From the sequence record OR167180: a stretch of DNA of 64,000 nucleotides. The stretch is one strand, 5' to 3'. The notes under the pieces are model-generated. The model was given only the letters and a program-made list of their open reading frames with translations, was not told where the DNA came from and did no database searches. The stretch is from Escherichia phage MIZ4. How positions within the stretch are numbered: the stretch's first letter is position 1; each line of letters begins with the position of its first letter. The translations under genes and the position numbers were made by a program. This document shows, piece by piece, positions 1-2,817 of this stretch.

Positions 1-2817
1 ATGAGCGTGATTGAAGGGATTAACGCAATGGCGACGGATGAACACCCGCTACATTTAGCTCATCCGTCTACACTAGAAACTAAAATTGATTCAAATGGTA
101 TTGAATGGATTTTATCAAAGCATGATGATAAATGGTATCCTAAAAAGTTTTCTGACTATCTGAAATTAAACAGACCGCAGAAAATAAGGATGCAAAGCAC
201 TGATCCAACAAATTATAAGTTCTTTAAAGATAGTGACAATATTCGCACGCGGTATATGCGGTTAAAGAACTTGCGAAGGGCGAATATTAAAACTCAGTAT
301 ACCCCTGAAATGATCGCGGAGTGGAAACGATGCCGTAAAGATATTGTATATTTCGCAGAAACCTATTGCGCAATTACACACATCGACTACGGTACAATCA
401 AAGTACAATTGCGTGATTATCAGAAAGATATGCTTAAGATCATGCATGAAAACCGCATGAGCGCACATAAACTCAGTCGTCAGCTAGGTAAAGCACTTGA
501 TGTTAATACGCCTATTCCTACCAGCGATGGGTTTAAACGTATGGGGGATATTAAAGAAGGTGATCAGATCTATGCGCCTAATGGTCGTTTAGTTAATGTT
601 GTATATGCAACGGAATACCAGTATGATCGCAAGTGCTACGAAGTTGTTTTAGATACTGGCGCTAAAGTTGTTGCTGATGCCGATCATATCTGGACTGTAT
701 ACGAAAAAGTTGGCAACAAACATGTCAAGCGTGATGTTACAACTCAGGAAATGGTCGATAAGGGTATTACTACCAAAGGTCAATCCAGATTTAAAATCGC
801 TAAGACTAAACCGATTAAGGGAGAAACTAAAGTTCTTCCTGTTGATCCGTATACTTTAGGTTATTGGTTAGGTGATGGTCACACTGATGCAGCACGAATC
901 ACCCACCATAAGGACGATAGCGGCATTCTGACGCATTTAAACGAACAAGGCTATCATACATATACTTTTGCAGATAAACGCAATAGCAACGTTCTCACAA
1001 CGTCTGCGCATGGGTTATGGGAAGGACTTAAAACCGCTGGCGTTGCTGGCAATAAGCATATCCCTATGGAATACCAATTCGCTGATATTGATCAGCGAAC
1101 TGCATTACTGCAAGGTATCATGGATTCTGACGGATGCATCAATAAAAATGGTTATGCTGAAATTACATTAAAACTGAAACCGCTTATCGATGACATTTAT
1201 TCGCTGTTGTGCGGATTGGGCTTTAAGCCGAAAATGAAAGAAAAAGTGGTAAAAGGTACTGTATATTACAGAATTTCATTTAATGCATATGCAGATAAGG
1301 GTGTGTGTCCGGTTCGAATGAAGCGTAAGAAAGCAAATCTTATTAATTCTTGCGAAGATACAAGAACAGATTTTCTTTTTATTCGTGAAATTAATCCGGT
1401 TGAATCTCGTCCGGTAAAATGTATTCAGGTTGACAGCGAGGATAAACTATATCTGTGCGGTCGTGAATTTATTCCGACTCATAATACTACCGCTGTAGCA
1501 ATATTTCTTGCTCACTACGTTTGCTTTAATAAAGACAAAGCGGTAGGTATACTGGCACACAAAGGATCAATGGCAGTTGAGGTTCTAGAACGTACTAAAC
1601 AAGCAATTGAACTATTACCAGACTTCTTACAGCCAGGTATTGTTGAATGGAACAAGAAATCAATTGTTCTTGAAAACGGTTCAAGTATTGGTGCTTATGC
1701 GTCGTCTCCTGATGCCGTGCGTGGTAACTCTTTTTCGTTTATCTACATTGATGAATGCGCATTTATTCAAAACTGGACGGATTGTTTCCTTGCAATTCAA
1801 CCAGTAATTTCTTCCGGTCGTGAATCTAAAATGATCATGACCACGACTCCGAACGGGCTTAATCACTTTTATGATATCTGGCAATCGGCTATTGATGGTA
1901 AAAGTGGTTATGTTCCATATGAGGCGGTTTGGCATTCTGTTAAAGAACGTCTTTACAATAAAGCTGATATATTCGATGATGGTTATGAGTGGTCATCTCA
2001 GGCGATCGCCGGATCTAGTCTTGAGCAATTCTTACAGGAACATAACGCTGAATTTTTCGGTAGTTCCGGTACTCTGATCAGGGCAACCACACTATCAAGA
2101 TTATCCTTTATTGACGTTGTTAATGATAACGGGTTTTATCAGTTTGAGAAACCGAAAGAAGGTAGAAAATATGTTGCTACACTAGATTGCTCAGAAGGTC
2201 GAGGACAGGACTATCACGCATTGCAAATCATTGATATTACTGAATTTCCTTATAAGCAGGTTGCAGTATATCACAGCAATACTACGTCACATTTTATATT
2301 ACCGGATATTGTCTTTAAATATCTCATGATGTATAACGAATGTCCAGTTTATATCGAGCTAAATAGTACGGGTGTATCTATTGCTAAGTCTCTTGCAATG
2401 GATCTTGAATATGATAATATTATTTGCGACTCATTCATAGATCTAGGGATGAAACAATCCAAAAGATCTAAAGCAATGGGATGTTCGGCACTAAAAGACT
2501 TAATAGAAAAAGATAAGCTGATCATTAATCATAAAGGAACTATTCAGGAGTTGCGCACATTCTCCGAGAAGGGAGTAAGCTGGGCGGCAGAAGAAGGTTT
2601 TCACGATGATTTGGTCATGAGTCTGGTAATATTTGGTTGGTTAACAACTCAAGAAAAATTCGCCGAATATGCAGGAAAAGACGAAATGCGGATCGCCTCC
2701 GAAATATTCCGAAAGGAATTAGATGAATTGGGGGAAGAATACGCGCCCGTGGTAATATATGACGGTGCAAACGGCATCGAAGAATATAGGCCGCGTGAAG
2801 GTCTAACAATGATATAA
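1..2817 (+). CDS. 17: Large terminase subunit (T4 gp17-like), 938 aa, interrupted in-frame by an intein in the Walker A P-loop
   Basis: Flanking parts colinear with T4 gp17 ([34 protein letters not shown] / [30 protein letters not shown]-terminal [13 protein letters not shown]); about 330 extra residues after SRQLGK. Confidence 0.95.
493..1485 (+). mobile_element. Intein with LAGLIDADG homing-endonuclease domain (331 codons) inside gene 17
   Basis: Inserted between K and T of the GKT P-loop; LAGLIDADG-like motifs LGYWLGDGH and [10 protein letters not shown]; ends FIPTHN followed by Thr; first residue is Ala rather than Cys/Ser. Confidence 0.7.

Follow-up and report, generated by a model that had tools for sequence, protein, structure and literature searches.

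Class 3 inteins lack a nucleophile at residue 1. They share three co-varying residues, i.e., Trp at position 12 of splicing block B (B:12), Cys at F:4 and Thr at G:5 (WCT), and carry Ser or Thr at the first position of the downstream extein (+1) (PMC2807308). Most of them reside in P-loops of ATPases such as DnaB, RecG, SNF2 and the large terminase subunits (TerL) of phages, where they were noted already in 2009 (PMC2807308). Terminase is the commonest intein host in mycobacteriophages, and the P-loop site between Lys and Thr (K/T; here and below, a slash marks the insertion point) is termed 'classic' (PMC5050341). The class 3 TerL inteins are related to the P-loop intein of mycobacterial DnaB. 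Splicing was shown for five TerL representatives (sites b, c, e, f, g), and active LAGLIDADG endonucleases are described for BAKA TerL1-b and Bethlehem TerL1-c (all PMC5050341). For E. coli and its phages, a 2024 paper states that no inteins were reported (PMC11162368). Here, we studied a stretch of 64,000 nucleotides (nt) from Escherichia phage MIZ4 (OR167180; the window), in which gene 17, encoding the large terminase gp17, is interrupted at 493-1485. Based on sequence comparison and a structure model, this insert is very likely a class 3 intein that contains a probably active LAGLIDADG endonuclease, placed between Lys164 and the Thr of the gp17 Walker A motif.

The window is 100% identical to the record of Escherichia phage MIZ5 (OR167181.1) from base 1, and we name the intein after the latter. 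MIZ5 belongs to the Straboviridae, genus Krischvirus, i.e., to the RB49-like T4 relatives. Its record annotates the open reading frame (ORF) at 1-2817 (plus strand; 938 amino acids, aa) as terminase large subunit, and gene 17 DNA used as a query finds a single match site there. The encoded protein comprises the Pfam domains Terminase_6N and Terminase_6C (E=4e-39 and 4e-23) and matches the T4 gp17 structure 3EZK with E=1e-270 in a PDB sequence search. That is, its ATPase and nuclease domains are colinear with T4 and RB49 gp17, which makes it a T4-type large terminase. Structures of gp17 have been solved by crystallography for RB49 and T4, and for T4 there is also a cryo-electron microscopy model.

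We compared gene 17 base by base with that of RB49 and found a single, unambiguous insertion that measures exactly 993 nt, or 331 codons. The empty site of RB49 reads CTA GGG AAA/ACT ACC GCT, while the filled site of MIZ5 reads CTA GGT AAA/GCA CTT GAT ... ACT CAT AAT/ACT ACC GCT. The insertion is in frame, and the 993 nt are absent from RB49, from about 50 other Krischvirus records and from T4 gp17. In the alignment with 3EZK, query residues 17-164 correspond to T4 gp17 20-166 (ending in LSRQLGK) and residues 496-905 to 167-577 (starting with TT). Since the alignment breaks at 166/167, the insertion point falls precisely between K166 and T167 in Walker A of T4 gp17. A preliminary description, made from the letters of the window alone, had given gene 17 the same length and placed the insert between K and T of the GKT motif, with flanks colinear with T4; the comparisons with 3EZK and RB49 bear this out. 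It had taken the approximately 610 aa of T4 gp17 as size reference. The insertion of 331 residues stands, with the small correction that the direct intein-less comparator is the RB49-type gp17 of 607 aa. The masses estimated there for the spliced protein and the free intein (about 70 and 37 kDa) are close to our calculated values of 69.6 and 37.3 kDa, for a precursor of 106.9 kDa.

Both ends of the insert are homologous to solved class 3 inteins. For 6BS8 (DnaBi1 of M. smegmatis, Msm) as well as 6RIX and 6RIY (DnaB-1 of M. chimaera), phmmer reports E values from 2.5e-18 to 3e-17, where the matching parts are the first 69 and the last 28-35 residues of the intein. Within these parts, each of Ala1, Cys48, His65, Trp67, Cys310 (in the context PVKCIQVD), Thr329, His330 and Asn331 is paired with its equivalent in the solved inteins. 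A further 120 intein-bearing proteins were matched with E values from 1e-152 to 1e-40. The AlphaFold2 model of the intein, built with 35 homologues, has a mean predicted local distance difference test score (pLDDT) of 96.1 and a predicted template-modelling score (pTM) of 0.93. Its top Foldseek match is PI-SceI (E=2.5e-19; template-modelling score relative to the query, TMq, 0.75), followed by TliVMA and PI-PfuI (TMq 0.66-0.75 overall). Class 3 mini-inteins superpose on the splicing domain only (score relative to the target, TMt, 0.78-0.86). Thus, splicing blocks A, B, F and G are found by homology of both ends and the Hedgehog/intein (HINT) fold by the model, while the C-terminal junction reads PTHN/T, i.e., His-Asn followed by one of the residues (Ser, Thr or Cys) found at +1 of inteins.

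The residues at the ends also fix the intein class. Residue 1 is Ala, i.e., none of Cys, Ser and Thr, and it is accompanied by Trp67, Cys310, Thr329 and Thr+1. A class 1 intein would start with Cys or Ser, and the class 2 (KlbA-like) pattern does not fit either, given the WCT triplet and a Thr rather than a Cys at +1. By its sequence signature the insert is a class 3 intein, from which the mechanism is predicted. Family conservation was counted in an alignment of 121 sequences (the 120 homologues and MIZ5). The F:4 Cys is present in all of them (121/121). The G:5 Thr, the terminal Asn and a Ser or Thr at +1 are each found in 120/121 members, and the B:10 His, the B:12 Trp and the penultimate His in 119/121. 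Ala occupies residue 1 in 111 members, while Gly at -2 and Lys at -1 are seen in 112 and 116 of the 121, respectively. Cys48 is conserved in at least 90% of the alignment, and Cys310 is likewise conserved.

With these results, every call that the preliminary description had made on the nature of the insert is supported. It had proposed an intein, on which homology, structure prediction and intein-less alleles agree, with a C-terminal His-Asn followed by Thr (the junction reads IPTHN/T). From Ala1 it had concluded that splicing takes a non-canonical route, which can now be named as class 3 given the WCT signature and Thr+1. The alignment to T4 gp17 and known inteins that it had suggested as a check returns the exact K/T insertion and ends that match class 3 DnaB inteins. 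A lack of conserved splice-junction blocks would have spoken against its proposal; the homology search finds blocks A, B, F and G conserved.

The central part of the intein carries the candidate endonuclease. The two LAGLIDADG motifs seen in the preliminary description are located at residues 122-130 and 205-214, and the Pfam model LAGLIDADG_3 scores 28.7 bits for a cut-off of 22.5. Residues 120-270 match the endonuclease region of PI-SceI (phmmer, E=4e-4). In the model, helices are formed by residues 119-128 and 199-213, and the fold matches those of PI-SceI and I-DmoI. Sequence and model hence show the features of a double-motif LAGLIDADG enzyme, i.e., two helices, each with an acidic residue (Asp128, Asp213), within an endonuclease fold.

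Next, we surveyed the distribution of the intein among 64 records matched by megablast. It is present in 11/64 records, representing 10 phages (MIZ5, ECD7, AV108, FL15, FL04, kvi, PTE-Eco09, ELT3 and Makalu_002/003), while most others have an empty site. The exteins of the empty-site alleles are 98.6-99.5% identical to those of MIZ5. All 10 carriers are independently isolated, lytic, plaque-forming phages (from Russia, Denmark, Nepal and elsewhere), and the frame is open in each of the 10 alleles. A scan of IMG/VR for close copies returned ECD7 only, plus distant inteins of at most 37% identity. A search of 5.8 billion proteins yielded one relative with 69% identity (P0001) and a fragment of 527 aa, P0036, whose intein portion is 99% identical.

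The carriers share two intein variants, A and B, which differ in 42-44 of 993 nt with a ratio of nonsynonymous to synonymous substitution rates (dN/dS) of about 0.11 over the whole intein. This corresponds to 11-12 amino-acid changes, none of which touches a catalytic residue. Copies of variant A are at most 3 nt of 993 apart while their exteins diverge by 1.4-5.6% (extein dS up to 0.22, intein dS at most 0.005). ELT3 provides the reverse case, i.e., its exteins are near-identical to those of MIZ5 and its intein (variant B) is 4.2% different. Just upstream of the insertion point, a synonymous marker is linked to intein presence: position 489 is T in 9/10 intein alleles (the exception being ELT3 with variant B) and G in 6/6 sampled empty alleles. 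This marker is probably a short co-conversion tract. Taken together, the sequence patterns point to recent homing with short co-conversion and to a functional element.

The exteins of Krischvirus gene 17 are themselves mosaic. A divergent C-extein haplotype, 5.5% away from that of MIZ5, is common to ECD7, kvi and PTE-Eco09. It starts about 80 nt downstream of the intein (window past about 1560, or from extein coordinate about 570), and the Makalu phages have yet another haplotype. Since these mosaic exteins surround nearly the same intein or variant B, recombination breakpoints must lie close to the element. A recent import of the intein from high-GC (guanine plus cytosine) Actinobacteria was considered and rejected, as its GC content is 39.6% compared to 38-39% for the exteins. 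This match suggests that the element has long been resident in AT-rich phages. We also rejected an RNA-level origin, i.e., a group I/II intron or structured RNA: an Rfam scan of bases 1-3000 (including intron families, E<=1) found nothing, and the insert is an in-frame open ORF under purifying selection.

Given the class 3 signature, the following pathway can be proposed. Translation of gene 17 would give the 106.9-kDa precursor, whose broken P-loop should make it fail as packaging ATPase. The thiol of Cys310 (Cys474 of the precursor), presumably activated by the variant block B (His65, Trp67), would attack the Lys164-Ala165 bond and take over the N-extein as a thioester (block F branched intermediate). 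Transesterification would then move the N-extein onto the Thr+1 hydroxyl (block G branched intermediate), and cyclisation of Asn331 would release the 37.3-kDa intein. Finally, an O-to-N acyl shift would rebuild the Lys-Thr bond, yielding the 69.6-kDa gp17 with an intact GKT motif. In a mixed infection, the endonuclease of the free intein would be expected to cut intein-less gene 17 at the empty site (CAGCTAGGGAAA/ACTACCGCTGTAGC). Repair off an intein-bearing genome would then fill this site with a copy of the element, and the accompanying co-conversion tract would be very short. We infer the chemistry of the individual steps, the failure of the precursor as ATPase as well as the activity and specificity of the endonuclease. 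With Lys and Thr of the P-loop 331 residues apart, the terminase is not expected to work, so carrier phages should depend on splicing.

Several points weigh against this reading and have to be kept in mind. Splicing, the block F thioester intermediate and DNA cleavage are predictions here, and since part of the WCT inteins in the literature lack a mechanistic test, the signature predicts a class 3 mechanism without proving it. Furthermore, no splicing (HINT) domain model of Pfam-A or NCBIfam matches the insert at E<=1. Among Pfam models only LAGLIDADG_3 is above threshold, with Hom_end below it and neither Hint nor Intein_splicing matching. NCBIfam gives weak matches only, to intein parts of intein-containing proteins, while intein-containing TerL families are matched in PHROGs. 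As the HINT models are silent, the assignment is based on homology, both pairwise and across the family, together with the predicted fold, and routine annotation pipelines will overlook inteins of the MIZ5-type class 3 family. Finally, the decoupling of intein and exteins could also come from ordinary recombination within gene 17, without any endonuclease.

The last point leads to an intein that splices but whose endonuclease is dead, i.e., an immobile, vertically inherited passenger with a patchy distribution due to ordinary recombination and loss. Decayed endonucleases are frequent among inteins, the closest solved relatives (DnaBi1 and MchDnaB-1) are mini-inteins without endonuclease, and cleavage of DNA by the MIZ5 intein is a prediction only; given the mosaic extein haplotypes, recombination alone could moreover shuffle the flanks. 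Nevertheless, both LAGLIDADG motifs with Asp128, Asp213 and Lys188 are intact and conserved across the family, and the endonuclease region is open in 10/10 alleles with the low dN/dS of about 0.11 for the whole intein. The near-identity of variant A (at most 3 nt of 993) across exteins that are up to 5.6% apart, along with a marker 4 nt from the junction, is what recent homing with short co-conversion would be expected to leave. We thus consider a dead endonuclease unlikely.

Doubt about splicing itself or its route has less room. If the insert did not splice but were an accessory domain, a HINT-like domain restricted to cleavage or a fused endonuclease, either kept in gp17 or just cutting it, the silence of Pfam on a splicing domain would be explained, and splicing is a prediction. 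However, the phages are viable with a single gene 17 in which the Walker A Lys and Thr are separated, and each residue of the splice junctions is conserved. Terminase function does not require the domain, given that the intein-less allele is 98.6-99.5% identical in the rest of its sequence, and related TerL inteins splice efficiently in reporters (PMC5050341). A domain that does not splice is therefore extremely improbable. For the route, Ala1 as found in KlbA inteins would also suit class 2 splicing, in which no block F thioester is formed and the N-terminal junction is attacked by the +1 residue itself. But class 2 inteins lack WCT and use Cys+1 (PMC2807308), whereas the full triplet is present here and Thr+1 would be a poor nucleophile for direct attack on an amide. 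In addition, the nearest homologues are class 3 inteins characterised by experiment, which cannot do without the block F Cys (the C118A mutant of DnaBi1 is splicing-dead; PMC6195587), such that we regard the class 2 route as very unlikely. The reading as a class 3 intein with a probably active endonuclease is thus kept, and Table 1 lists the respective features.

Table 1. Features of gene 17 and its insert in the window; residue numbers are those of the intein unless stated otherwise, and catalytic roles are predicted.
Feature	Position	Strand	Evidence
N-extein, gene 17 residues 1-164	1..492	+	ends SRQLGK, first half of Walker A; colinear with RB49 and T4 gp17
Synonymous marker, Gly GGT for GGG, 4 nt upstream of the insertion point	489..489	+	linked to intein presence
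Class 3 intein (by signature), 331 aa, 37.3 kDa, in frame with both exteins	493..1485	+	exact insertion; matches to 6BS8, 6RIX, 6RIY; AlphaFold2 model
Splicing block A; residue 1 is Ala (GCA, 493-495), no N-terminal nucleophile	493..531	+	aligns with ALALDTPLPT of Msm DnaBi1 (6BS8)
Cys48, non-block cysteine	634..636	+	alignment of RKCYEV with RPCYVV; equivalent to Cys48 of Msm DnaBi1
Splicing block B; His65 (B:10), Trp67 (B:12, 'W' of WCT)	658..699	+	aligned with ADAQHQW of 6BS8
LAGLIDADG homing-endonuclease domain (predicted), about residues 101-290, approximate bounds	793..1362	+	Pfam LAGLIDADG_3; PI-SceI match; fold
LAGLIDADG motif 1, LGYWLGDGH, residues 122-130, putative catalytic Asp128	856..882	+	Asp in 114/121 family members
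Lys188 (GNKHIP), block D-like	1054..1056	+	invariant column in family alignment
LAGLIDADG motif 2, residues 205-214, putative catalytic Asp213	1105..1134	+	Asp in 118/121 family members
Splicing block F; Cys310 (TGT, 1420-1422; F:4, 'C' of WCT), proposed initiating nucleophile	1411..1458	+	aligned to VRCVEVD, class 3 DnaB inteins
Splicing block G (EFIPTHN); Thr329 (G:5, 'T' of WCT), His330, terminal Asn331	1465..1485	+	family conservation
Thr+1 (ACT)	1486-1488	+	P-loop Thr and splice-junction nucleophile at once (predicted role)
C-extein, mature residues 165-607 and stop codon	1486..2817	+	T4 gp17 167-577; Pfam Terminase_6N, Terminase_6C

Downstream of gene 17, the genes for tail sheath, tail tube and portal follow in T4-like order, and a tRNA scan of the window returned none.

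We also considered whether the intein could be more than a selfish passenger. In Msm DnaBi1, H2O2 reversibly blocks splicing via a disulfide between the block F Cys and Cys48, where the latter is itself essential for splicing (PMC6195587). For zinc, a reversible inhibition is reported as well (PMC7360933). By analogy, the MIZ5 intein could act as a redox- or zinc-sensitive conditional switch on DNA packaging, to which we assign a low probability. If true, redox conditions in the infected E. coli cell would gate terminase maturation and thereby packaging timing, and the intein-plus, intein-minus and split-intein alleles of Krischvirus would constitute a natural fitness test in a T4-class model.

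The split-intein alleles belong to a second element. Seven cultured Krischvirus coliphages (SAP, TB34, JK32, kaaroe, G2494, phiS and GoldenSnicker) have no P-loop intein and carry another element in gene 17, namely a non-triplet insertion of 1288 nt between Glu and Cys of Walker B (IYIDE/CAFIQNW; 2263-3554 in vB_Eco_SAP). It splits gene 17 into two ORFs. The first encodes TerL residues 1-255, a short N-intein with block A only (CVSGLTKVTLRD) and a TnsA/endonuclease I-like nuclease, while the second encodes a C-intein of about 107 aa (blocks B, F and G; LECSESHKL ... NNVESHN/C) and the rest of TerL. The best PDB match of the intein part of the second ORF is an engineered consensus intein chain, CatC (6DSL_B; E=5.5e-13), a construct presumably derived from the atypically split AceL-TerL intein family. 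By its sequence, the Walker B element looks like a naturally and atypically split intein or 'fractured gene', and it resembles the unusual 'Terminase' fractured gene of Dassa et al. 2009 (PMC2677866). The P-loop intein and the Walker B element occur together in 0/17 carriers.

With regard to annotation, the intein-bearing terminase is mislabelled as 'replicative DNA helicase DnaB' in PP400778.1 (FL15), PP358550.1 (FL04) and PQ306574.1 (PTE-Eco09). GenBank flags the intein by a single automatic note ('intein-containing'), which is attached to a wrong product name. The misannotation is propagating and likely due to the resemblance to DnaB P-loop inteins; the present analysis corrects it for the three records. 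Within the literature searched, we found no description of an intein in gp17 of RB49-like or T4-like coliphages, and the MIZ5 intein qualifies the 2024 statement on coliphages (PMC11162368). On the other hand, class 3 inteins in terminase P-loops are established (2009-2016), such that the MIZ5 intein changes no concept and is less unusual than the preliminary description implied. What it offers is a class 3 intein, complete with its predicted endonuclease and placed in the gp17 motor of a phage that grows on E. coli, along with natural intein-less and split-intein alleles. This makes phage-to-phage homing, the rivalry of two selfish elements for one essential gene and a possible conditional splicing of the packaging ATPase accessible to tests.

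Related inteins are widespread. A tblastn search finds them in 826 phage records, including Omega and LittleE (38.8% identity), the Synechococcus phages B3 and B23, E. coli jumbo phages and Stx2a-converting phages. Full-length relatives with 31-41% identity occupy GK/S or GK/T sites in three families of terminases (Terminase_6N, Terminase_1-type PF03354 and GpA) as well as in PD-(D/E)XK proteins. Most full-length relatives (31-36% identity; metagenomic P0010-P0120) are found in dCTP deaminases of Actinobacteria and Chloroflexi, where they interrupt an EGK/SS motif that mimics the GK/S or GK/T of a P-loop though the enzyme is no P-loop ATPase. A short GGxAAR/WSx-like target, shared by unrelated genes, may thus be what the endonuclease or intein family tracks.

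Among described systems, the closest in the splicing domain are Msm DnaBi1 (6BS8) and M. chimaera DnaB-1 (6RIX, 6RIY). They share Ala1, Cys48, the block B His and Trp, the block F Cys and the C-terminal Thr-His-Asn with the MIZ5 intein, and they are likewise inserted in a P-loop such that the +1 hydroxyl residue doubles as P-loop Ser or Thr. Unlike the MIZ5 intein, they are mini-inteins (139-145 aa) without endonuclease and with Ser at +1, their host is the bacterial replicative helicase, and the similarity is limited to about 100 splicing-domain residues. The DnaB intein of mycobacteriophage Bethlehem, i.e., the class 3 prototype (PMC2807308), also combines a non-nucleophilic residue 1, WCT and Thr+1. 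It is of similar length (341 aa compared to 331 aa), and our proposed mechanism is borrowed from it. Host protein and phage group are different, and B:7 is Ser in Bethlehem but Asp in the MIZ5 family (Bethlehem was compared by its description). Regarding fold and architecture, PI-SceI (yeast VMA1), TliVMA and PI-PfuI similarly join a HINT splicing domain with a double-motif LAGLIDADG endonuclease, but they belong to class 1 (Cys1), exceed the MIZ5 intein by about 100 residues and share about 16% sequence identity with it.

Concerning the host protein, mycobacteriophage TerL1-a is a counterpart whose host is likewise the large terminase of a phage and which interrupts the ATPase domain at the same K/T position of Walker A. 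The TerL intein of Omega/LittleE reaches 38.8% identity to MIZ5 over the whole intein. The mycobacteriophage TerL inteins as a group have at most 39% identity and reside mostly in Terminase_1 proteins of phages with actinobacterial hosts, in contrast to the Terminase_6 gp17 of a coliphage in MIZ5. The closest relative outside Krischvirus is P0001, a metagenomic T4-like TerL from a metagenome-assembled genome labelled 'Clostridium sp.' (a partial 2-kb contig), with a 69% identical intein at the same GK/TT site. Its exteins are only 62-76% identical, which argues for another straboviral lineage.

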